A program made the position numbers and the translations under genes. Positions 3,225 through 46,713 of a stretch of DNA of 46,713 nucleotides are shown piece by piece. Every line of letters starts with the position of its first letter. Position 1 is the stretch's first letter. The notes under the pieces were generated by a model that was not told the DNA's origin, made no database searches, and saw only the letters and a list, made by a program, of their open reading frames with translations. Source of the DNA: a phage. The stretch is taken from sequence record PZ379183.1; one strand, 5' to 3'.

Positions 3225-3283
3225 ACATGACAGGCATGGATGCCATATAATTAACCCATCAAACAACGAAGAGAGATAGAGAT

Positions 3284-3841: not shown

Positions 3842-4038
3842 TGAATAAAATTATTAAGAAAGGCGATGCTATCAAGTGCACAAAGGCGGTATCTGATGAC
3901 TTCATGGATGGATGCGATTACCAGGTCGAAAAGGTATCGAAGACTGGCCACGTATTCTGCTACAGCGATAATGGCGAATTGGTGAGCATTGACTACCCGT
4001 ATGACCAGAATTATGGGAAATTCGAAAGAGTAAGTTGA
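3838..4038 (+). CDS. hypothetical protein (66 aa)
   Basis: ATGA overlap with upstream ORF. Confidence 0.45.
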   Translation: MMNKIIKKGDAIKCTKAVSDDFMDGCDYQVEKVSKTGHVFCYSDNGELVSIDYPYDQNYGKFERVS

Positions 4039-4226
4039 CACATCTAACCCTGACTGGTACATTAACAACTGTAGACAGACGAGGCCACCAAGTGGCAACG
4101 GCGCACGGAGCGCAACACAAAGTCCATAGCTCACTAAGCAGCGTATATGGCGAAATCGGTCGAGAAACTCGACGCTGGAAGCGTAACCAGCAATCCTTCA
4201 ATAGCGCAATCGCTACTCAAGGATTT

Positions 4227-4299
4227 GTTCTGCTGGCGTAACAGGATAACGCAAAGACCTCCTAAGTCTTAGTTACTGGTTCGAGTCCAGTGCGGAACA
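4227..4299 (+). tRNA. tRNA-Arg (anticodon CCU)
   Basis: Manual cloverleaf fold: 7-bp acceptor stem GTTCTGC/GCGGAAC (one G-U), U8, D-stem GCGT/ACGC with GG in D-loop, anticodon stem AAGAC/GTCTT, loop CUCCUAA (U33, anticodon CCU, A37), T-arm ACTGG-TTCGAGT-CCAGT, discriminator A followed by encoded CCA. Confidence 0.85.
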
Positions 4300-4333
4300 C
4301 CAAATTAAGAAACCAATAATCCTGGGGGATTAA

Positions 4334-4546
4334 ATGAAAAAAGTAACAATCATCGTAAAAGATATTGAAAGCGGCACTTCCCAAAAATTCAACGCAACAC
4401 TTGACCGTGAACATAAATGCTTAAAGGGTGTGATTGGCGGGGTTTCAGTTAGCGCGGATATTAAAGGCTATCTCGAGCTTGAAAGAGAAACTCAAAACTA
4501 TAGCAATCAGAGCGGGAAGATAAAAAATGCAGCTCTGGGATGTTAA
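4334..4546 (+). CDS. hypothetical protein (70 aa)
   Basis: ORF with GGGGGATTAAATG RBS directly after the tRNA. Confidence 0.45.
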   Translation: MKKVTIIVKDIESGTSQKFNATLDREHKCLKGVIGGVSVSADIKGYLELERETQNYSNQSGKIKNAALGC

Positions 4547-4792: not shown

Positions 4793-4839
4793 CGTTTGCT
4801 ATATGATATAATGCATCTCTAAACAAAGGAGGTAACAAA

Positions 4840-5364
4840 ATGAAAGACGAAAACTTCACCAGTCAGGCGCAAGAAAAGGTCCGCTCTGGCAACTTTAAAG
4901 CCATGTACAATAAAAAGTACTCAGACATTACAACGCTAGCCAAAAACCGAAGCATGACACCCGAACAGCTATTTGAATTCGCCGTGAAATACTTCTCATG
5001 GGCTGAGAACCAGGCAATCAAGGCAATCGAGACAGCCAGCTTCCAGGGTGTGGTAAAAGAGAGCCTGGTGCACAAACCACGAGTCTTCACGCTAACCGGA
5101 TTCTGCCTTTACTGCGGTGTCACCCATAGCGCCATCGAGAAATGGAGGAAGTCGGCTGGTTATGATGAGGTGATTGCGTTCATTGATTCCGTGATTCGCG
5201 AGCAGAAATACCAGCTTGCAGCATCTGGCATCATTAACCCTGGCATGATTTCCAAAGAGCTTGGAATCGACAAGCCGCAGGAGATTACCATCAGCAACAA
5301 CTCTTCAGCTAACGACGTCGATACGATGAAGGAAGCGCTGGAGTCTGTGATTAGTAAGCTGTAA
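4840..5364 (+). CDS. terminase small subunit (putative)
   Basis: AAGGAGG RBS; 174-aa ORF immediately upstream of the large terminase gene; assignment by position. Confidence 0.5.
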   Translation: MKDENFTSQAQEKVRSGNFKAMYNKKYSDITTLAKNRSMTPEQLFEFAVKYFSWAENQAIKAIETASFQGVVKESLVHKPRVFTLTGFCLYCGVTHSAIEKWRKSAGYDEVIAFIDSVIREQKYQLAASGIINPGMISKELGIDKPQEITISNNSSANDVDTMKEALESVISKL

Positions 5365-5380: not shown

Positions 5381-6952
5381 ATGAGTGAAACATTAGTATG
5401 GGAAGAAATGACGCCAGCAGAAAAGATGGCAGTTAAGGCTATATCCACTCATAGTTTCGAGGGATTCTTGCGGGTGTGGTTCCAACTTACCCAGGGCGAG
5501 CGATACATCCCTAACTGGCATCACAAATACCTGTGTCGAATCATTGACGAGATTATCGCTGGTGAGCGCAAGGACACAATCATTAACATCGCTCCAGGAA
5601 GTGGAAAAACAGAGATAGCTTCAATTCACTTCCCGGCCTACTCGATGGTTAAGCTAAAGAAGGTCAGGAACCTGAACATCTCGTTTGCCGACTCACTTGT
5701 TAAGCGTAACTCCAAGCGAGTTCGGGACCTGATTAAGTCTGTTGAGTTCCAGGAGTTATTCCCATGCAAGTTCGGTACGTGCAAGGATGATGAGCTTCAA
5801 GTTCTGGATGAGTCTGGTAAGGTTCGGTTTGAGTCAATATCTAAGGCTGCTGGAGGCCAAATAACCGGCGCAAGGGGTGGATATATAACGGATTCATATA
5901 GCGGAGCGGTTCTGTTAGATGATTTTGACAAACCAGCCGACATGCTTTCTGCTGTTTTTCGCGCTAACAATCACGTGATGCTAAAGAATACAATACGCTC
6001 TCGTAGGGCGAGCTCCGTAAAAGGAAAGGCGACGCCGATTATCTCTATCCAACAGCGCCTTCATGTGAATGATAGTACGTGGTTCATGATGAATGGCGGT
6101 ATGGGTATTAGCTTCGACTTGATTAAGATACCGGCGCTCGTAACTGAGGATTACGTCGACACGCTTCCTGACTGGATTAAGCGGCAATTCATTGATGACG
6201 TTCTATCAAGCGAATATATTGAGCGTGATGGTGTTAGGTACTATAGCTATTTCCCTGGCAAGGAATCTGTTCACGACCTAGTTGCAATGTGGGATTCTGA
6301 TAGCTATACATTCCTTAGCCAGTATCAGCAAGAACCAGTAGCACTTGGCGGCAACCTGATTAACGTAGACTGGCTTCAACGCATTAGCGACACTCTGCGA
6401 CCGCCAGCTAAGTACGATTACAGGTTTATGGTCCTTGATACTGCGATGACAACCAAAAGTTACAGCGACTTTAGCGTCATGCAGCTATGGGGTTATAAGG
6501 ATGGGAAGATTTATCTGCTTGACCAGCGGCGCGGTAAATTTGAAGCTCCTGAGCTCGAGGCTGAGTTATTGGATTTCGAGAAGATGGCTAGGGCATCCAA
6601 TCAGATAGATGGCATCCTTCGTAAAATCATCATCGAGAAGAAAGCCTCTGGTATTGGCCTGATTCAATCAGCCGGAAGGGTTATGCGAACGCCTATCGAG
6701 CCGTACGTTCCGGATAACGATAAGCTGACTCGCGTAATGAGTGCATTGCCGCAGATTAAAGCTGGTAACGTAATCCTTCCGGAGTCTGCTACTTGGCTTA
6801 ATGGCTTGCTAACGGAGATTGCGGCATTCACGGCAGATGATTCACATGTTCACGATGACCAGATAGACTGTTTGACAATGGCCGTAAACCTGGTACTGAA
6901 CATTGCAGAAGACCCTAAATCGAGGATGATGCGCCTCGCTGGCATCAAATAG
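5381..6952 (+). CDS. terminase large subunit
   Basis: ORF track 5369..6952; start at ATG after GGAGAG; Walker A-like GSGKTE near the N-terminus and C-terminal acidic nuclease-like region; position before portal. Confidence 0.85.
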   Translation: MSETLVWEEMTPAEKMAVKAISTHSFEGFLRVWFQLTQGERYIPNWHHKYLCRIIDEIIAGERKDTIINIAPGSGKTEIASIHFPAYSMVKLKKVRNLNISFADSLVKRNSKRVRDLIKSVEFQELFPCKFGTCKDDELQVLDESGKVRFESISKAAGGQITGARGGYITDSYSGAVLLDDFDKPADMLSAVFRANNHVMLKNTIRSRRASSVKGKATPIISIQQRLHVNDSTWFMMNGGMGISFDLIKIPALVTEDYVDTLPDWIKRQFIDDVLSSEYIERDGVRYYSYFPGKESVHDLVAMWDSDSYTFLSQYQQEPVALGGNLINVDWLQRISDTLRPPAKYDYRFMVLDTAMTTKSYSDFSVMQLWGYKDGKIYLLDQRRGKFEAPELEAELLDFEKMARASNQIDGILRKIIIEKKASGIGLIQSAGRVMRTPIEPYVPDNDKLTRVMSALPQIKAGNVILPESATWLNGLLTEIAAFTADDSHVHDDQIDCLTMAVNLVLNIAEDPKSRMMRLAGIK

Positions 6953-6965: not shown

Positions 6966-7021
6966 AGACGTGCCGCCAAGGATGGCTTATAGTTACTTCA
7001 CGCAAACGAGAGGAGTAAAAA

Positions 7022-10562: not shown

Positions 10563-11093
10563 ATGGCAATTCGTTCTGTAGCACTGGCAGGTATGGTGGC
10601 TGATACTTCCCTGTACAATATCGATGGCGCTTGTGTAGTTGACGGTACTGCCGCCACACGTATCCCTGTTGGCACATTCGTGGGTGTTAGCACCGCTCAG
10701 CCTGTAGATGGTCACAAGGTTGTCGCCCTTCCAGCCGTATCAGGGACTGCAATTAAACCTTACGGTGTTGTTGTTCGTTCTCACTACGAGACTCCGGATG
10801 GTCAGGCTCGCGGCCTTGAAGCAGTTAACATCATGACCTCTGGCCGTATTTGGGTTCGCACCACTCTGTCTGCGGCTCCGGCATTTGGCGATAAAGTTTA
10901 CGTAAATGCTTCTGGTGTTGTGACAGCTAAAGCAGCTACTAAAACTTGGGAAACTGGTTACAAGTTCGCTGGTGGTTTCCTTTCTGGTTACGCTCCCGGA
11001 AGCGACCATATCAAGCAAGGTGAGAGCTACGACGGCGCTCTGGTTGAAGTTCAATTGATTCAATCCGCAGATTCGGTATTAGCTACTGCTTAA
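10563..11093 (+). CDS. capsid-associated protein (decoration or minor capsid, putative)
   Basis: AAGGAGA RBS; Gly/Ala/Val-rich 176-aa ORF between scaffold and major capsid, followed by strong terminator. Confidence 0.35.
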   Translation: MAIRSVALAGMVADTSLYNIDGACVVDGTAATRIPVGTFVGVSTAQPVDGHKVVALPAVSGTAIKPYGVVVRSHYETPDGQARGLEAVNIMTSGRIWVRTTLSAAPAFGDKVYVNASGVVTAKAATKTWETGYKFAGGFLSGYAPGSDHIKQGESYDGALVEVQLIQSADSVLATA

Positions 11094-15382: not shown

Positions 15383-15441
15383 GACCAAATCGCGGATTGC
15401 TGTATAGTTCATTCATCGAAACGAAATGAGATATTAGTGAA

Positions 15442-30285: not shown

Positions 30286-32815
30286 ATGCAAGAGAAACTC
30301 TTGAGTTTGCAAATATCAAGGCGTCCCTTTGATTATCAAATTTTACAACAAAATAATCAGCAAGGCTTAATACCATACCAGTTAATCCATTGAGGTTAAT
30401 GTTAAGGTTTGCAACGCCAGAAACCGAAGCCTTACCAACGCCAAATGTATGAACCCACTTACCAGCTTCTGTGAATACAGTTCCTAATGATGCGCTACCA
30501 AAAATGTTTATAATACCATCAGCACCGCCTTGAATCCTGTTTGCAGAAATACCCCAAGCATACCATTTGCCGGAAGTTATATTAAAGCCACCATTTATCA
30601 ATTCGTACTGAGCCGCACCAGCCAATTCGTAGTATCCAGATGATTGCGAGTGTATACCCCTTGTATCAGAACCTTCACTTGCCGACCCTGTTCCACCAAA
30701 GTTGTTCCCACCAGTACCAAAAGGCCTCCTGACTAAAACAGTTCCGGAATCGGGATTAAAAACTCGACCCTTAGTAACATATCCTCTAACAGATAGGTTT
30801 GAAGTGCCAGTTATCTTGGCTGTCTGTGATACCAGCGACTCAACTATAACGTTTGATGTTGAAGATCCATTCAGGTATGCATCCTTAGCAAAAATAATAC
30901 TGTTCGAATCAAGAGAGAAACTTTGGTGCCCATCAGCGTTATCAAACCTGCACCCATAAGTTACAAGGTTTGAATTTGATAACTCAATGTTATTAATATA
31001 AGAATGCTCAGCAAAGAAAACGGACGTATCGATGAGCTTCAAAACCCTTGGGAGTTCAGCTCCCTCACCTACGTTAATTGCCCCACCAGTTGCTATCGCT
31101 TCAAACCATACGTTAGACAATCCGCAAGGTGATGTTGGGCAATCTCCAGGTTTATTCTTTAACCTTATACCGCCGCCAGCAGAGGCCTCCATTATTGAAT
31201 CCCTAATCCACCACCCACCAATTCCTCCAGCACCAGGGTTCGTTGCGCTACTTGTGCTTGTCGCATCTAGCATTACTGAATATTGAGAGATTGTATCTGA
31301 GTGGTATCCGTATAAAGTGTCCGCTCCTATATGCATTTTGTCATGAGCTTTTGCTCTATACCCGTAATTCGCATTTCTAACACTTACGTTTCTGTAGGTA
31401 TTTCCAATGTTGCCAGCGTTTTTACGTATACCAACATCAATGTCGCTGAAGTACAGCCTATCCATCACAATCCTGCCAGCATAAGGGTCATTCGGGAATT
31501 GAAAGCCGTTATTACCTTGTATTGCAGTACCTGTAAACTGCAAATCCGATAAATGCTTTTGCCTCCAGTGAGGAACCGATAGCGTTGAGGTGAGTCCGGT
31601 TTCAAAAGGTTTAACACTTATTACGGTATTATATCCAGAGCCTGATATGTTCCTGCCAGCAAAGGAGTAGTTATTACTCTCATAAGTTCCCGGACTTATA
31701 ACTACCGACCCGCCATCGCCAGCGGCTTTTATTGCTGAAGATATTGAGCCGCTATAGCTTGATGTGCTTTTTGAATCTGTATTTAAAATTGATGACACCT
31801 CACCCTTTGAGTAAACATCAAGGTTGGTTCTTGCCACGGACTTATCTGCAATGTCTGAAAGATTCAATGATTTTTGAAACGTCTCGGATTTTGAATAAAC
31901 ATCAATCAAATCCCTAACCCTTGATGAGCTTGCTCCTCCACTTATACCTCCTGATGGAATTGATAAAATCTCCCTTGTATAAAACGTTCTTACTGAGTTT
32001 GACACTGAGTATCTAATAGATAAGTTATAGTAGTTTGCATTTGATGTTGTTGCTGATGATAAAAGCAACTCTCCAGTTCCTGCTGTAACAATCTTGCACT
32101 CAATTACATAATCAAGACTAGCACCGGCACTTGATATAAGGTCATTTACACTAGAAGGAGTGTTTACCATTGCTGACTTTGACACTAAAACTTTTGAGCC
32201 GTTTTTAAATGCGTAAGTTTGCCAATCAAATGAGGTAGCTCTAATTGCTACTGAGTTTGCTATATTGTAAGATGCAAGCGTTGCTAATGTTCCGGCGTCA
32301 CCAGCATTATTAATTGCGCTAATAGTAGCATCGCGTGCCTCTGTCGTAGCGTCTCTTGCTGAGGCGGCTGCACTCGCACTTTCAGCGGCAGCGATCTGAC
32401 TAGCTAGCGCCTCAGCAGCCCCAGTGGTTGATTGGGTTGCAAGCTGCTCGAAGCGAGGCCAATCGAAAGTATCTTGCCCGATAAATTGCAGTAGACTTTC
32501 AATAGAAGTCTCTTTTGACTGGTAGTAACGCAATGTTTCCGCAACATCCTGCGCCAACCCCTGAACAGTAATTCCATCATGAGCAAGAATTGCGTAACCA
32601 GTACCAGCGGGAACAGTTTCAGAACTTGGATTATAAACATTAACCTGAGTATCGCTGATGATTTCAGAGATGGTGTAAATTTTCAGAGGGCTGGTTTTGA
32701 AAATGATAGTAGCACCTACACGAATCAGTGTAAGAGGTGCTTTCCATGTAGTACCTACGCCAGTAACCTCGCCATTTGAGGCTAGTGATGCTGTTCCTAA
32801 GTCATAAATTGCCAT
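30284..32815 (-). CDS. tail fibre / tailspike protein
   Basis: 843-aa ORF; Ala-rich coiled N-terminal segment then long Ser/Gly/Asn/Thr-rich region consistent with beta-helix fibre; located apart from the J-like gene on the opposite strand. Confidence 0.6.
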   Translation of the reverse strand: MAIYDLGTASLASNGEVTGVGTTWKAPLTLIRVGATIIFKTSPLKIYTISEIISDTQVNVYNPSSETVPAGTGYAILAHDGITVQGLAQDVAETLRYYQSKETSIESLLQFIGQDTFDWPRFEQLATQSTTGAAEALASQIAAAESASAAASARDATTEARDATISAINNAGDAGTLATLASYNIANSVAIRATSFDWQTYAFKNGSKVLVSKSAMVNTPSSVNDLISSAGASLDYVIECKIVTAGTGELLLSSATTSNANYYNLSIRYSVSNSVRTFYTREILSIPSGGISGGASSSRVRDLIDVYSKSETFQKSLNLSDIADKSVARTNLDVYSKGEVSSILNTDSKSTSSYSGSISSAIKAAGDGGSVVISPGTYESNNYSFAGRNISGSGYNTVISVKPFETGLTSTLSVPHWRQKHLSDLQFTGTAIQGNNGFQFPNDPYAGRIVMDRLYFSDIDVGIRKNAGNIGNTYRNVSVRNANYGYRAKAHDKMHIGADTLYGYHSDTISQYSVMLDATSTSSATNPGAGGIGGWWIRDSIMEASAGGGIRLKNKPGDCPTSPCGLSNVWFEAIATGGAINVGEGAELPRVLKLIDTSVFFAEHSYINNIELSNSNLVTYGCRFDNADGHQSFSLDSNSIIFAKDAYLNGSSTSNVIVESLVSQTAKITGTSNLSVRGYVTKGRVFNPDSGTVLVRRPFGTGGNNFGGTGSASEGSDTRGIHSQSSGYYELAGAAQYELINGGFNITSGKWYAWGISANRIQGGADGIINIFGSASLGTVFTEAGKWVHTFGVGKASVSGVANLNINLNGLTGMVLSLADYFVVKFDNQRDALIFANSRVSLA

Positions 32816-32837: not shown

Positions 32838-32853
32838 TAGCACTAATTGCCAA
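32838..32853 (+). promoter_or_regulatory. TAGCAC-N5-GCTAA motif copy (variant TAGCACTAATTGCCAA)
   Basis: Between primase stop and tail fibre start; plus orientation although flanking genes are minus. Confidence 0.4.
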
Positions 32854-32880
32854 AATTCATTCTACCATCTTTCAGGCAAT

Positions 32881-32900
32881 AAAAAACCTCCCGAAGGAGG
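32881..32900 (-). terminator. rho-independent terminator (minus strand)
   Basis: CCTCC-CGAA-GGAGG hairpin preceded on plus strand by A6 (T-tract on minus strand), right after primase stop. Confidence 0.7.
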
Positions 32901-33824
32901 TTAGTTTAGCAAGTCGTTTGCTTTGTACACTTTCTTTCGTATGCCTGTTTTAAATGACTCACCGTCATTAGGAACTACAACATCAACACCCCTATCGTCA
33001 GCAACAGCGAGTATATCGCTATCAGAATCACGGCAAGCAATTCTGAACTTCCTTGACTTGTCGCGGTGGATAACCATCTCCATATTGTAACAGGAGAAAG
33101 CAACAAACACTTCGCGCCCACCAGTAGCAAGGTGAACACGTATGCCATCAATATAATTGTCAACAACATAAGTATAACTATCATCCAGCTTAGAACCAAT
33201 AACGGAAACAGAATCACGAGTGTAATCACCAGCAAGGAACTTAACATTTGAATCCTCATCAATAAACATTACGTTACAGAACTCATCACTAAGCCCATCT
33301 TCATAAACCATCGAACAAGGGATTGCGTGAATCATTGAACAATTTTTAGCTATACCAACATCAAAACCAAACTCGTCATAAATACCCTCGTATGTCGTGA
33401 GTGGACTAGATTCAACTCGCTGAGTCCTCTCCATGACCTCAAGAACTTTCTTGTGGTCTACTTGAGCGCAAATTTTATAACGCTGCGTTCTTGATGCTTG
33501 CTTGTTTGCTTTAACTATAACCTCAATTGGTATTAAGTTCAGCCAGTCACCAAGCAAATTTACTGAATCAGCGAAGGACAATCCAGTGCACTTCATGACC
33601 CATCCTATACCGGAGTCACTTCCGCATTTCGAACAAACTGCCGCGCCATTTCCTTTTTCACTGCCTATTTCGTCGGTAAATCTGAATCTGTCAGTGCCAA
33701 AGCAGTATGGGCATGGTCCGTGCTTCTTACTTAGGTGTCTATCATTCCAACCAAGTTCCTTTGCATAAAATGATTTCCACAATCCGGCCATCTTAGGTAT
33801 AACTTCATTCTTATCGTAATTCAT
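32901..33824 (-). CDS. DNA primase (zinc-finger primase, putative)
   Basis: N-terminal zinc ribbon C-P-Y-C...C-S-K-C followed by acidic catalytic-like region; upstream of helicase in the replication block. Confidence 0.65.
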   Translation of the reverse strand: MNYDKNEVIPKMAGLWKSFYAKELGWNDRHLSKKHGPCPYCFGTDRFRFTDEIGSEKGNGAAVCSKCGSDSGIGWVMKCTGLSFADSVNLLGDWLNLIPIEVIVKANKQASRTQRYKICAQVDHKKVLEVMERTQRVESSPLTTYEGIYDEFGFDVGIAKNCSMIHAIPCSMVYEDGLSDEFCNVMFIDEDSNVKFLAGDYTRDSVSVIGSKLDDSYTYVVDNYIDGIRVHLATGGREVFVAFSCYNMEMVIHRDKSRKFRIACRDSDSDILAVADDRGVDVVVPNDGESFKTGIRKKVYKANDLLN

Positions 33825-34300
33825 TTGCTTAACCCGTGATTTTCGTGAAAGTTGTATTTTCCCTCTGCTTCAATTCTTACTTTATACGCCCGCTCTGGAG
33901 TATCGAAGTTCCCAAGGTGTAGCTGCTTGCCGTCAACCTTGATGTGAGCCTTAAATTTTCCGTGATTTAGCTTTGCCACTCCACAATAACCAGTTGTTGA
34001 TAAAACGCTAAGCTTGCAATTTCTTGAGTTACCTTGATTTGTTGTTACTCTTAGGTTTTCTATTCTGTTATCTAATTTGTTATGGTTTATATGATCAATG
34101 TAGTCGCCATTTTGAAGTTCTCCATTAAACATCTCCCACACAACTCTATGTACATAAGTCCTAAAGCCATTAACAGACACTTTGTAATAGCCAGATGTAG
34201 ATAGTGAGTTGCACTCATCGCCAACCTTAACACGTCTTGCAGTGCTAATCTTCCAATGCAATTTGCCATCTACATAGTAAAAATAATCATGCCAGTTCAT
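33821..34300 (-). CDS. HNH homing endonuclease
   Basis: YVHRVVW...IDHINHNKLDNRIENLR signature; paralogue of 14169..14651. Confidence 0.75.
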   Translation of the reverse strand: MNWHDYFYYVDGKLHWKISTARRVKVGDECNSLSTSGYYKVSVNGFRTYVHRVVWEMFNGELQNGDYIDHINHNKLDNRIENLRVTTNQGNSRNCKLSVLSTTGYCGVAKLNHGKFKAHIKVDGKQLHLGNFDTPERAYKVRIEAEGKYNFHENHGLSK

Positions 34301-34351
34301 TTTCTTCTCTCCAATAAAAAAGGATGTACCGATTATGGCACATCCAATTAT

Positions 34352-34825
34352 TTACTCTTTAGCTTTTCGTGCGGCTTCGTTGGCAATCTTATTCTTGCGC
34401 CACGGTCGACAAGGTGGCTTTGTTGCTAGTTCAGCCTCAGTAACCACGCGTAGCATGTGGCGCTTCTTGCATCTAAGCGTCAGAGGCTTACCGTTACCGT
34501 CAAATTGCAGGTCTGGTCGGCAGAAAGTAGCTCGGAACCCTCCCTTATTTCTCTTGTACGCATTATGTGCTCGCTGGGCGCCTCGAGCCGAAATCATACC
34601 GCGATCAAACCATTGTTCTACAGTCTGGTGAGATACATTTAACTGCTTGGCGATATTGGCCTTCGTGCCGTAGAAGTCAAGAACCATCTCCAGACGAGCT
34701 CTTAGCCCAGCCTTTACTTCATCTTTCAATACGTAGTAGCCTGACGGTCGTTTGCGCTGTTTCTTGTCTTGCGTGCGGATGGTTCCGTTATTGCCGTTGA
34801 TAGTTCGCTTGTCAATTTCACACAT
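34352..34825 (-). CDS. Cro/YdaS-like HTH DNA-binding protein (putative regulator)
   Basis: GTKANIAKQLNVSHQTVEQWF helix-turn-helix segment, basic C-terminal region; first gene of a minus-strand operon from a divergent control region. Confidence 0.4.
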   Translation of the reverse strand: MCEIDKRTINGNNGTIRTQDKKQRKRPSGYYVLKDEVKAGLRARLEMVLDFYGTKANIAKQLNVSHQTVEQWFDRGMISARGAQRAHNAYKRNKGGFRATFCRPDLQFDGNGKPLTLRCKKRHMLRVVTEAELATKPPCRPWRKNKIANEAARKAKE

Positions 34826-34848
34826 CTCATTACCTCAATAGCATTTTT

Positions 34849-34864
34849 TGTTAAACAATAGGGT
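34849..34864 (+). promoter_or_regulatory. TAGCAC-N5-GCTAA motif copy (variant TAGCATTTTTTGTTAA)
   Basis: In the divergent intergenic region between the HTH gene and the helicase gene. Confidence 0.4.
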
Positions 34865-34921
34865 CGATAGTTGTTATTATACAGCAATGCAACGAACTAA
34901 CAAAATGTCGGGATATTTAAA

Positions 34922-36916
34922 ATGCTTCCAGTAGAGCGCTTAGTAGCCAACTTCGATCAAGAGAAGATTAAGCAGATTCAGAGAGATTACCAGTTTGGAG
35001 AAATCACTCCTTACCCATTCCAGTGTGTGACATTTGATGCAATTGGGAAGGCTATTGGAAAGTACGAGGCCCCATTCATCGCAGACCTGTCTGTATCTGC
35101 TGGTAAGACAATTATTCTTGCCATGATTGGAAAGCGCATGGAACAGCTTGGGCTTCCTTACATGGTGCTTTCTCGCCAGTCAGAAATTATCAGCCAGAAC
35201 GCTGAAGAGCTTCGTAACTTCGGCATCCGTAATAGCGTCTATTGCGCTGGCCTTAACGTTAAATCAGTTTACTACCCAACCATAGTGGCTAGTGAGGGCA
35301 CGGCTGCTAACGGCTTGTTTAAGGGCCTTGGTGACTATGTTCCTGCCGTTATTGCGATAGATGAATGTCATATGGTTGACCATATGGATATCGTAGAAGC
35401 TGAAGAGAACGAGGAAACATTCGAGCAGATGAGCACGAAGAAGGGTGAGATGGTTTTCAAGGATGGAGTGAATACCGGATTGCTCGGAACTGGTCGTGCG
35501 CAGTACACGCTAATCATTACTGAGATGAAGAGACGCTGCAAAGAGAAGTATGGTCGCGAACTACGCATCTTCGGTTTGACTGGCAGCCCGTACCGTAACA
35601 ACGACCACATTGTAGTTAGTAACCCAAATGTCCGTGGATTCTGGCGCAAAACTGTAATGCAAGTGCCAACCAGCTACCTTGTTGACTTGGGGTTCGTTGT
35701 TCCTACTGTCTACGGTGAAGTTGGTGATTTGGGCTACGACCTTAGTGAGTTCACTCCTGATGGAAGTGATGGGGTTAAGGACTTCAGCAAGAAAGAAATG
35801 GATGCGATGGCTGCAAAGATTCACGAAAACCAAACGATGACACAAAAGATAATGGGATTTGCTGCTAAGTTTATGGAAACAAGGAATGCTGCATTGGTAA
35901 CTTGCGCTGGCAAACAGCATTGCGAGGAGGCGGCAGCCGCACTTCCAGAAGGTGTTACTTGGGCGATAGTTACCAACTCCACTGGTGAGAAGAAGCGTAG
36001 AGAGATACTTGAGAAGGCAGCCAACGGAGAATATAAGTTCATATTTCAGATTGGTTGCCTCACAACTGGCGTAAACTGCCCCCCGTGGGATACAAGCATT
36101 ATCCTGAGGAAGGTTGGTAGCATTACTCTACTCATTCAGTTGCTTGGTCGTGGTATGCGTATCCTTAAGAAGAAGCACAAAGAAGCTGGAATGGTAAAAG
36201 ATGACCATGTTGTTCTTGATTTTGCTGGAACGCTTGATGATATGGCTGAACTTTACTTCGACCCAATTATAGAAGAGGTACAAGACCAGAAATTTAGGTC
36301 AGCAAGAAAGCGTGGTGATAAGCCAAGAATCTGTCCGGCATGCTCTTATGTGAACTCTCAATTAGCCAGGCGCTGCAATAACGTAATTGACTGGAAGCGC
36401 TGTGAGCACTTCTTTCAGTTTAGACTGTGTGAAGATATAGCGGACCCACAGACCAAAGCTATCATTAAGAAAGGATGCGGTGAGAAGAATGATATTGCAG
36501 CTAAGAATTGCAGATGCTGTGGTGAGATGCTCATAGACCCGAATGCTAAGTTATCAGGAAAAATGTATCGTAAGGGGGACTGGTTGCGAGTTTATGACTT
36601 CAAGATTGGGTTAACAAAGAACCAGTCAGGGATCGTTGCTTCATATGAGGTAATGGCTCATAGTGGAGATAAGTTCCGAGCTTATGAAACATTCTTCCCG
36701 GAGTCAGACCATCGTGTTTGTTCTGTCAAATGGAAGGCGTTTTGCTCAACTCACATCGAGAACAGGACTGAGGCTTTTAGGATTGGCAGATTGCGTAATG
36801 CTAAAATGATTATGACAAATGCACATCTTTTCCGTGCGCCGCTAAGGATTACGCACCGCAAGAATCAGAAGTCGCAAGATATTATCGCCAACAAATCATT
36901 TACGATGGAGGATTGA
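34922..36916 (+). CDS. ATP-dependent DNA helicase (superfamily 2, DEAD/DEAH-like)
   Basis: Walker A-like SAGKT, DECH box (AIDECHMVD), later helicase-type motifs and a C-terminal Cys-rich zinc-finger region. Confidence 0.75.
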   Translation: MLPVERLVANFDQEKIKQIQRDYQFGEITPYPFQCVTFDAIGKAIGKYEAPFIADLSVSAGKTIILAMIGKRMEQLGLPYMVLSRQSEIISQNAEELRNFGIRNSVYCAGLNVKSVYYPTIVASEGTAANGLFKGLGDYVPAVIAIDECHMVDHMDIVEAEENEETFEQMSTKKGEMVFKDGVNTGLLGTGRAQYTLIITEMKRRCKEKYGRELRIFGLTGSPYRNNDHIVVSNPNVRGFWRKTVMQVPTSYLVDLGFVVPTVYGEVGDLGYDLSEFTPDGSDGVKDFSKKEMDAMAAKIHENQTMTQKIMGFAAKFMETRNAALVTCAGKQHCEEAAAALPEGVTWAIVTNSTGEKKRREILEKAANGEYKFIFQIGCLTTGVNCPPWDTSIILRKVGSITLLIQLLGRGMRILKKKHKEAGMVKDDHVVLDFAGTLDDMAELYFDPIIEEVQDQKFRSARKRGDKPRICPACSYVNSQLARRCNNVIDWKRCEHFFQFRLCEDIADPQTKAIIKKGCGEKNDIAAKNCRCCGEMLIDPNAKLSGKMYRKGDWLRVYDFKIGLTKNQSGIVASYEVMAHSGDKFRAYETFFPESDHRVCSVKWKAFCSTHIENRTEAFRIGRLRNAKMIMTNAHLFRAPLRITHRKNQKSQDIIANKSFTMED

Positions 36917-36917
36917 T

Positions 36918-37337
36918 ATGAAAATCACAGACAAAGGTGATTACCTCGAGTTCTATGGCGGACCGGTGAAGTCATGCCCAAAGGAAGACGATGAACAAAT
37001 CTTCTGCTCTGATTGGGTGAAATACAACTATCCGCAGATTGTTTACTGGCACACGATTAACGAAAATAAAAAGAGCATTGGTCAAGCAAGAAAAGACCAA
37101 GCCAAGGGGCTTCTCAAAGGTGTGTCAGACTGCTTATTTCTGATACCTGAGTCATTGCGTGGCGGTTATCCATTTGGCGCCATAGAGTTAAAGAGGGCTG
37201 GTAAAACGCAAGCAAGCCCAGTTAGCAATGAGCAAAAGTCATTCCTAAAAAGCGTAAGGGAATCAGGCGGTTTCGCAGCGGTGGCTTATGGAAGAGAGGG
37301 TTTTCTTGCGGCATTCGCAGAGATGATAAGAAAATAG
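36918..37337 (+). CDS. VRR-NUC-type nuclease (putative)
   Basis: Small PD-(D/E)XK-like core with D...E-L-K (GAIELKRAG); translationally coupled to helicase (stop/start overlap). Confidence 0.5.
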   Translation: MKITDKGDYLEFYGGPVKSCPKEDDEQIFCSDWVKYNYPQIVYWHTINENKKSIGQARKDQAKGLLKGVSDCLFLIPESLRGGYPFGAIELKRAGKTQASPVSNEQKSFLKSVRESGGFAAVAYGREGFLAAFAEMIRK

Positions 37338-37958: not shown

Positions 37959-38201
37959 ATGATAGTTGAAACAGGACGGGCCGCAGTCTGGGCCCACTGC
38001 GCAGAGGCTGGCATTCAGGACGACATTAAGATGATATCTAAGTACTTCGATATAAAAGATATCAGTGTCATCTTCAACGGTAAGTTTACGTACATGGATG
38101 AAAGGCCGCGCAAGTATGTCAGTGTTAAACCTGGCGTCACGATAAACACGAATGAGTTCCTGAAAGAACAGGGATTCAAATTTAAGATAACGAAGGTTTA
38201 G
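37959..38201 (+). CDS. hypothetical protein (80 aa)
   Basis: ORF in operon context. Confidence 0.4.
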   Translation: MIVETGRAAVWAHCAEAGIQDDIKMISKYFDIKDISVIFNGKFTYMDERPRKYVSVKPGVTINTNEFLKEQGFKFKITKV

Positions 38202-39686: not shown

Positions 39687-39743
39687 TAAAGCCTCAAAGG
39701 ATTGAGGCAAAATGAATAAACGATAACGAGATGAGGAGTTGTA

Positions 39744-40773: not shown

Positions 40774-40831
40774 ACAATCGCCGGAGTAATCCGGCATAAT
40801 TACTACATCGAAAACAACAGAGGATTCAAAA

Positions 40832-44928: not shown

Positions 44929-44987
44929 GATCTCTTGCTCTCTTTCGTTTCGATGGAGTAAATATACGCCATCCGTGGCGGTGAGTT

Positions 44988-46159: not shown

Positions 46160-46270
46160 GATTTATAGATTGTTGCAGCTATTGCAATGATTCATCTCAT
46201 TATTGCACATATAGCAATATTGCATCGAATGCAATGATGTTTTTGATTGTTGCAGAATTTGCAATGATCG
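46160..46270. repeat. array of TTGCAATGAT direct repeats and TTGCA-based palindromes
   Basis: ATTGTTGCAG-N-TTGCAATGAT at 46160-46185 and 46244-46270; ATTGCACATATAGCAAT and TTGCATCGAATGCAA palindromes between them. Confidence 0.65.
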
Positions 46271-46415
46271 ATGTGGGGTGAATGAATGGTGGATGGACTA
46301 CCATACAAGTTGATTTTGATTCTTGCTGAGCCAATTTGGATATACACGTTATCGAAGTTATGGTGTGTATATGAGGTGCGCTTCCGAAGAATCATACACG
46401 CCTACCACGCTAGAT

Positions 46416-46500
46416 TACGCAATGGTTACATAATAATATCTATATATATCAACCTTTTACTATATTATTATTATTATTATATATATGTATGTATATGGTG
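46416..46500. repeat. second copy of the 85-bp AT-rich element with (TTA)n microsatellite
   Basis: TACGCAATGGTTACATAATAATATCTATATATATCAACCTTTTACT...(TTA)6...TATATAT is near-identical to 27491-27575. Confidence 0.7.
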
Positions 46501-46713
46501 TAGATTGGTCGTATGGATGGGTCGATAGTTTTTCTATGAAAACTACTAATTTTATCTATATAGATACATATGCATACCCCCGGCGAATCCGCGTAAAATC
46601 TTACACAGGGTAATTACACCAGCTATAGCTGGGCTGAGAGGTCAAAAAGCGTAACCAATGCAGATATAAACACAACATAACACTTGATAACGCGTATATT
46701 CATGATACCATGG

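Follow-up and report, generated by a model that had tools for sequence, protein, structure and literature searches.

A Cro-type helix-turn-helix gene lies among predicted marbox promoters in the replication region of a T1-like phage

The DNA analyzed here (the window), a stretch of 46,713 nucleotides from record PZ379183.1, represents all or nearly all of the genome of a T1-like phage (Drexlerviridae, Braunvirinae-like). At 34352-34825 its minus strand carries an open reading frame (ORF) for a helix-turn-helix (HTH) protein of 157 amino acids (aa). The protein is of the Cro type (P22 Cro/YdaS type), with fold and profile evidence in agreement, and its gene is a universal core gene of T1-like phages, located between the primase and helicase genes. 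At both ends of the gene lie matches to the marbox, the site of the enterobacterial regulators MarA, SoxS, Rob, and RamA, each followed by a predicted promoter. We tentatively favor the view that the protein binds DNA and regulates transcription in the replication module of T1-like phages, its expression running counter to marbox activation, with the step to "regulator" drawn from fold and wiring only.

The ORF is genuine, with an ATG start and a Shine-Dalgarno (SD) sequence, GAGG, 8 nt 5' of the ATG. Identity over the region is 93% to Escherichia phages TR1 and phiA2-1 and 88% to CEB_EC3a and DTL, and the records of these four phages label the orthologue "transcriptional regulator" or "hypothetical protein." In TLS the orthologue is gp57, between primase gp56 and helicase gp58. 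The PHROG 2856 profile ("transcriptional regulator") matches end to end (E 1.6e-81, residues 1-157 versus profile positions 8-165). Over residues 47-80, Pfam scores are 23.2 bits for P22_Cro (PF14549), below the gathering threshold of 30.2, and 20.4 bits for YdaS_toxin (PF15943), below the threshold of 30; certain homologues have precomputed PF14549/PF15943 hits. The fold is the all-alpha five-helix HTH of Cro/CI-type proteins in the P22_Cro/YdaS branch, with one HTH rather than the two motifs that AraC/XylS (MarA-like) proteins carry in a single domain of ~110-130 aa (HTH_18). An initial annotation, made from the letters of the window, had called the product Cro/YdaS-like, and both gene and assignment are borne out by this agreement of fold and profile; its operon model and the weight it gave to a basic tail are revised below.

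The family is narrow. Clustering at 90% identity gives 114 groups, and among 1.84 billion cluster representatives just 23 are hits at E<1e-10; beyond them extends a tail of ~80-aa Cro-like proteins whose similarity is confined to the HTH core. By tblastn, the gene is found in 831 phage records, of virulent phages with Klebsiella, Escherichia, Shigella, Salmonella, and other hosts. No integrase or CI, and hence no partner repressor or lysogeny module, is annotated in CEB_EC3a or T1, and the gene divergent to the HTH gene encodes a helicase, not a CI-type repressor. Already annotated in public records, the gene taken alone encodes an ordinary Cro-like regulator. The literature on Avs7 and on daunorubicin that names Drexlerviridae holds nothing about it.

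The ORF and the parts of its product are as follows.

34352-34825, minus strand: HTH ORF, 157 aa, Cro fold (PHROG 2856; orthologue of T1 ST23 and TLS gp57), from ORF, profile, and fold evidence
34745-34819, minus strand: invariant basic N-terminal arm (N-arm), codons 3-27, DKRTINGNNGTxRGxDKKxRKRP, from alignment; predicted disordered, pLDDT ~50
34598-34669, minus strand: helix-turn-helix, codons 53-76, with helices 55-62 and 66-75, from fold and alignment
34469-34543, minus strand: conserved C-module, codons 95-119, GFRAxFCRPDLxFDxNGKPLTxRC, from alignment

The HTH itself is not the best-conserved part of the protein. The invariant residues fall in the N-arm (D5, R7, N10, G11, N12, N13, R17, D20, and R24) and the C-module (G96, A99, R103, D105, F108, N111, G112, and C119), both of which had gone unmentioned in the earlier description. 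The N-arm occurs in every Drexlerviridae homologue and persists in the most distant ones; the ~100-aa homologues of AAM37-like myoviruses do not have it. The FCRPDL core of the C-module is also found in these short homologues, and it is similar to the LRPD end of Cro/YdaS domains. In the recognition helix (residues 65-73, here VSHQTVEQW), the exposed positions differ widely among lineages. The basic C-terminal extension emphasized at first is present here; as the sequence past about residue 128 is variable or missing in most relatives, it is a lineage feature.

This pattern bears on the suggestion, also made in the initial annotation, that the gene is a relic of a temperate ancestor. The Cro fold, the cro-like position ahead of replication genes, and the lack of an annotated CI or integrase partner would suit a decaying cro with no current role. 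However, the gene is intact in the 831 virulent-phage records as a core gene, 18 residues are invariant across homologues of ~50% identity to which lineage-specific modules have been added, and the promoter -10 is invariant as well. With its invariant motifs under clear selection, such a relic is highly improbable, and judged by conservation a functionless one appears excluded.

Upstream of the HTH start codon, an 18-nt element, TTTAACAAAAARTGCTAT, is kept in all 80 related loci, the proteins of which are just 50-85% identical. An alignment of 21 diverse relatives has only two conserved blocks in the intergenic region, the -10 and this box. The element has 9 copies in the window at ≤3 mismatches versus 0.26 expected, and its core, TAGCA-N5-TGCTA, has 18 copies at ≤1 mismatch and is the top over-represented palindrome in both the window and T1. 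Read on the other strand, 16 copies, 15 of them with a gene following, have a common layout: box, ~22 nt, a -10-like hexamer (TATAGT, TATAAT, or similar), the leader CATCGAAACGA, SD, and ATG, with 72-84 nt from box start to ATG. These units are predicted promoters. The genes that they precede are small early genes at both genome ends, Erf, the helicase, a methylase, a PNK-like gene, a DUF3987 helicase, and two genes in the structural region. A 21-nt "direct repeat," aaATAGCACnnnTTGnTAAAA, has been described at 21 sites of phage TLS, ~76 nt ahead of start codons, with further copies in T1, Rtp, and Rogue1; a stoperator, an enhancer site, or an UP element was proposed, and the function was left open (German et al., Phage 2024, PMC11447400).

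The ChIP-seq-derived consensus marbox of MarA, 5'-gcactaattgctaaa-3' (PMC5684230), in form GCAC ... GCTAAA, has 21 matches in the window at ≤3 mismatches versus 1.95 expected, including 3 that are perfect and 6 with one mismatch. The marboxes are in forward orientation. From marbox end to -10 hexamer the distance is 20 nt in 11 of the 16 units and ranges over 19-21 nt across the 14 with a -10-like hexamer, which places the marbox center near -40 of the predicted starts, over the -35 region, in promoters with a good -10 and no -35. About 15 of the 21 matches have the geometry of class II MarA/SoxS/Rob/RamA promoters, in which the marbox overlaps the -35 region with its center at -36 to -55 (PMC12052159); the micF marbox is at about -41 (PMC8811837). 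Both marbox promoters near the HTH gene combine the consensus match with forward class II geometry, and the helicase box, GCATTTTTTGTTAAA, is one base away from the MarA-binding ypeC site of E. coli (PMC5684230). In the literature searched, no paper was found that links marboxes or SoxS to T1-like phages. The copies, identified as consensus matches, are at these positions.

1184, 1866, 3211, 6952, 15368, 29053, 34841, 37337, 39673, and 40760 (also ~673), plus strand: marbox copies
26663, 27411, 34372, 44221, 45001, and 46150, minus strand: marbox copies

An identical box is found in Pantoea phage AAM37 and its relatives, which are myoviruses outside Drexlerviridae. These phages have a gene for an AraC-family protein of 135-136 aa, which among PDB entries matches MarA (E 1.4e-6) and RamA best. 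Their HTH homologue, of ~100 aa and without the N-arm, has the recognition helix IPFSGVRSW, and no box adjoins its gene. A MarA-like homologue was not detectable in the window, T1, or Vc1, all Drexlerviridae. Coordinates for two such phages are given below.

36758-37168 of AAM37 (locus L088): AraC-family gene; boxes at 32331, 35209, 37166, 40844, 44321, 46075, and 46346
10570-10977 of a second such phage (locus L092): AraC-family gene; boxes at 6344, 8934, and 10987

Because of the consensus match, the class II geometry, and the MarA-like gene of the AAM37-like phages, we regard the box as a putative marbox-type site, which would be read by host MarA/SoxS/Rob/RamA or, where present, by a phage copy. 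Two other identities were ruled out. The sigma-54 promoter consensus, TGGCACG-N4-TTGCW, does not fit, as its GG is AG in the box and the spacing is 2 bp short. Nor is the box an RNA hairpin or nut-like site, since boxes head units (helicase, 27399, and 46138) that have no upstream same-strand transcription.

A third candidate identity, the operator of a dimeric HTH protein (GCACTAATTGCTAAA), had been suggested by symmetry and leader position and was demoted because the box is the marbox consensus and the recognition helix is variable. It belongs to an alternative in which the HTH protein would itself read the box, activating ~16 box promoters when bound near -40 and repressing its own and the tail-fiber promoter when bound just downstream of the start, in the manner of lambda CI at PRM/PR or of Mu Mor/C. 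The inverted repeat TAGCA-N5-TGCTA, top-ranked in the window and T1, would suit this, as would the box in the gene's own leader in all 80 loci and the place of the HTH promoter among the few box-independent ones. The HTH protein is, moreover, the only recognizable DNA-binding protein common to both box-carrying phage groups, and the Drexlerviridae, which lack the MarA-like gene of the AAM37-like phages, alone have the invariant N-arm. However, the box matches the host consensus at up to 15/15, and its palindromic look is inherent in that consensus. It also stays the same across phages of E. coli, Vibrio, and Pantoea, whereas the exposed recognition-helix residues are wholly different (for example, VSHQTVEQW versus IPFSGVRSW); covariation of box and helix is in fact impossible, as the box shows no change even in the most distant contigs with a homologue or in a different phage family. 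The AAM37-like phages combine the same box with their own MarA-like protein and have none beside the HTH gene, and the single HTH contrasts with the two reading heads of MarA. With a constant box and a variable helix, we consider it improbable that the HTH protein reads the box itself.

Two further features of the box promoters were noted. Most of those that follow another gene have a short GC-rich hairpin between marbox and -10, variable in sequence and kept in position (for example, 1885-1900, 3230-3245, 6970-6985, 39690-39707, 40779-40794, and 44960-44975); it is missing from the first-in-unit promoters (helicase, 27411, and 46150). Such hairpins probably also terminate the upstream unit, in keeping with the "transcriptons" described for T1. 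In most box promoters, a leader of the form (T)CATCGAAACGA(G/A)AGAG lies ~10 nt 3' of the -10 and runs into the SD (for example, 725-740, 15425-15440, and 44935-44950).

The layout around the HTH gene is as follows.

34876-34903, minus strand: HTH promoter, predicted sigma-70, TTGTTA-16-TATAAT; -10 invariant in 21 diverse relatives; equivalent to TLS P57
34852-34880, plus strand: predicted helicase core promoter, TAAACA-17-TATTAT, preceded by TG; its -10 (34875-34880) overlaps the HTH -10 (34881-34876, other strand)
34841-34855, plus strand: helicase marbox GCATTTTTTGTTAAA in class II position; reversed in the HTH mRNA leader at ~+15 to +29, ending ~10 nt before the SD
34922-36916, plus strand: SNF2/DEAD-type helicase gene, divergent from the HTH gene (profile)
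34358-34372, minus strand: HNH/primase marbox GCACGAAAAGCTAAA, forward, overlapping the last HTH codons (A-R-K-A-K)
34322-34345, minus strand: terminator of the HTH unit, a hairpin and then the T-run TTTTTTATT, directly 3' of the HTH ORF
33821-34300, minus strand: HNH homing endonuclease gene (profile), missing from many relatives
32901-33824, minus strand: DNA primase gene, Zn-ribbon, P4 alpha-like (profile)
32885-32902, minus strand: intrinsic terminator 3' of the primase gene
32840-32867, minus strand: predicted tail-fiber promoter, an extended -10 TGGTAGAAT at 32867-32859 and then a reversed marbox GCACTAATTGCCAAA (plus strand, 32840-32854) at ~+1 to +20; conserved family-wide

The HTH gene is a one-gene transcription unit with its own promoter and terminator. 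P57, the TLS equivalent of its promoter, is one of just three sigma-70 promoters accepted by the TLS authors, who also annotated a terminator, T57, after gp57 (PMC11447400). T1 is annotated with a terminator after ST23, in the same place as the window hairpin. The initial annotation had made the HTH gene the first of an operon running through the HNH and primase genes to the tail-fiber gene. That arrangement does not hold, because the hairpin (34345-34322) lies right after an ORF with a promoter of its own, a separate marbox promoter (34372-34332) overlaps the 3' end of the ORF and serves the HNH/primase side, and a terminator (32902-32885) and an extended -10 promoter (32867) precede the tail-fiber gene. 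What stands is that the HTH and helicase genes diverge from a common promoter region. In this lineage only, an inserted HNH gene separates the HTH unit from the primase gene, its stop overlapping the primase start.

The -10 of the HNH/primase promoter, CATAAT at 34337-34332, lies 20 nt past the marbox and inside the loop of the terminator hairpin. The overlapping marbox encodes the last residues of the HTH protein (A-R-K-A-K-E). Across loci L004-L083, HTH C-termini use either an A-R/L-K-A-K-E frame (Braunvirinae-like) or a DST(K/N/D)(S/C)-stop frame (other subfamilies), the stop falling inside CTAAA. The odd conservation of these residues arises because the marbox dictates them, read in different frames.

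On the other side of the gene, the predicted HTH and helicase starts are back to back, ~18 bp apart (34869-34887 region). Since the two promoters share a -10 region and their predicted starts lie so close, they should exclude each other, or fire alternately. The shared -10 region is palindromic (for example, GTGTATAATACAC in relatives), similar to the symmetric bidirectional promoters known from bacteria.

At the tail-fiber gene, the order of an extended -10 (TGnTAnAAT) after the primase terminator and then a reversed marbox is conserved across subfamilies; it was also seen in the distant locus L085 (~5050-5100) and in L004-L048 (~3990-4480). This layout suggests that a marbox-binding factor could act there as a repressor. 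The HTH and tail-fiber genes are two units in which a box-independent promoter is followed by a marbox in repressing position, and the early and replication genes have the marbox in activating position. As the tail-fiber promoter has the same reversed-marbox arrangement just downstream, it is probably co-regulated with the HTH promoter. Box-independent sigma-70 or extended -10 promoters right after terminators were also observed at 4804, 11179, 12230, and 15668 (plus strand), where they serve the major capsid gene, the gene of the small terminase subunit, and certain tail genes. Late genes thus look "constitutive" and early genes activator dependent, the opposite of the usual phage logic.

Put together, these elements would form a switch. 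The helicase and HNH/primase promoters would each use a consensus marbox in class II position. An activator on the helicase marbox would send RNA polymerase rightward into the helicase gene and shut the HTH promoter, and with the marbox empty the HTH gene would be transcribed. Synthesis of the HTH protein would then run inverse to marbox occupancy and parallel to that of the tail fiber, and the protein may act in the switch from marbox-dependent early and replication genes to box-independent late genes. The initial annotation had proposed a temporal regulator of replication and late genes, which remains plausible in view of the -10 shared with the helicase promoter, although no operator was found.

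Several observations weigh against this account. The intergenic region has no conserved elements other than the -10 and the marbox, and no lineage-specific dyad rises above shuffled controls in the first 11 of 21 intergenic regions, those covered by the scan. A regulator with a conserved site would not usually vary so widely among orthologues in the exposed recognition-helix residues, and this leaves room for a protein that does not read DNA specifically. That the best-conserved part is a disordered N-arm would fit a protein partner better than DNA. Starts and activator dependence are predictions, and the literature searched holds no transcript or binding data for this phage group.

A protein partner is central to a second alternative, in which the HTH protein would be a protein-protein modulator acting through its N-arm, either mobilizing or antagonizing host MarA/SoxS/Rob or contacting RNA polymerase, with the leader marbox as feedback. 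The arm is predicted to be disordered like a docking peptide, is conserved best of all and out to the most distant homologues, and is absent from precisely that phage group which has a MarA-like activator of its own. The promoter wiring, too, would feed marbox occupancy back onto HTH synthesis. The correlation of arm and MarA-like gene is nevertheless weak, spanning two lineages only, and basic arms are common as DNA-contacting elements of HTH proteins; we consider this alternative unlikely. A wider proposal seems doubtful, if somewhat less so: that T1-like phages have wired ~20 early and replication promoters per genome to the MarA/SoxS/Rob/RamA class by means of class II marboxes, that the Cro-fold protein with its N-arm supplies, mobilizes, or antagonizes the activator, and that leader marbox and shared -10 form a feedback switch timing early versus late expression.

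Gene order points to yet another role. The order of a divergent helicase gene, the HTH gene, and then the primase gene is conserved in two unrelated virion types, Drexlerviridae and AAM37-like myoviruses, and in the latter and in L085 the HTH stop codon either overlaps the start of the primase gene or lies right beside it. A cro-like gene followed by replication genes resembles the lambdoid early-right operon. The HTH protein might, from this synteny, be a replication factor, a subunit that either binds DNA to recognize the origin or acts in loading, alongside the helicases and the split P4 alpha-like primase. An ori-binding domain is also part of P4 alpha, T1-like phages have separate genes for primase and DUF3987 helicase, and a variable recognition helix would suit lineage-specific origins. 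Against this, no iterons or origin-like repeats lie near the HTH gene, the sole repeat array of the genome coincides with the genome termini, and a terminator separates the HTH and primase genes in most Drexlerviridae; GC skew just tracks transcription direction and is uninformative for origin mapping. A replication role is, on balance, not likely, and transcriptional regulation of the replication module remains the reading that we prefer. Besides the HTH protein, the only small protein common to the window phage and AAM37 is an 80-aa protein of PHROG 2817 (37959-38201, plus strand). An IMG/VR search for relatives of P0121 and P0123 returned none.

The repeat array just mentioned consists of four TTGCA-N5-TGCAA palindromes at 46173-46265 in a conserved non-coding region. 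The same palindromes occupy nucleotides 1-50 of the T1 record (L086), and the Rtp and ESCO41 records also begin there. The initial annotation had offered the array (46160-46280) as a target of the HTH protein. The array is real, and its use as HTH target or origin was set aside, as it lies at the record starts of T1, Rtp, and ESCO41 and is absent from Vc1. Because of this coincidence with record starts, it is more likely a packaging (pac) or terminus element. A very AT-rich repetitive tract follows it (46430-46570; T1 220-300). The only Rfam match in the window is a tRNA at 4227-4299, plus strand (RF00005, 58.9 bits), and CEB_EC3a annotates a tRNA-Arg(tct) in the corresponding region.

Ordinary in itself, the HTH gene gains its interest from the circuit around it and from the marbox identity of the T1 repeat. 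The locus is a compact circuit with a box-independent HTH promoter, a -10 shared with the helicase promoter, two flanking marbox promoters, and a box in repressing position at the tail-fiber gene. MarA, SoxS, and Rob are host stress regulators that also regulate antibiotic resistance. If they drive early genes of Drexlerviridae, host physiology and mar/sox/ram mutations could alter phage susceptibility; such mutations are common in clinical Klebsiella and E. coli, and Drexlerviridae are widely used as therapy candidates.

Among known systems, the TLS repeat aaATAGCACnnnTTGnTAAAA is the very element that the HTH gene has in its leader and at its 3' end, and P57, T57, DR10, and DR11 lie around gp57; the TLS paper makes no link to marboxes and does not discuss gp57 (PMC11447400). 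For the protein, the closest known systems are the all-alpha Cro proteins of lambdoid phages (Xfaso 1 Cro, 3BD1; P22 Cro, 1RZS; N15 Cro, 2HIN/6ON0; PF14549). In contrast to these, which have ~60-70 aa, the HTH protein has 157 aa with an invariant disordered N-arm and an extra C-module, and its Pfam score is sub-threshold; its gene, in a virulent phage, lacks a CI partner, OR-type operators, and any dyad at its own promoter (first 11 of 21 regions). YdaS of the cryptic prophages Rac and CP-933P (PF15943; PDB 8C7K and 8CO2) pairs with YdaT in the prophage immunity region, whereas here no YdaT-like partner is found and the Pfam match is below the family cut-off.

With regard to gene context rather than protein, the boxes at the HTH gene resemble enterobacterial MarA/SoxS/Rob/RamA class II promoters, matching gcactaattgctaaa at up to 15/15 positions, in forward orientation, centered at ~-40, with a good -10 and no -35. 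Unlike the host promoters, these predicted sites are in a virulent phage genome, at ~20 per 47 kb and before early and replication genes. The lambda PRM/PR region and the controller (C) proteins of restriction-modification systems likewise place a small HTH gene at compact divergent or overlapping promoters, where occupancy of a site picks direction or timing. In the present locus, by contrast, the switch site appears to belong to a MarA-type activator instead of the HTH protein, and the -10 elements are shared outright.

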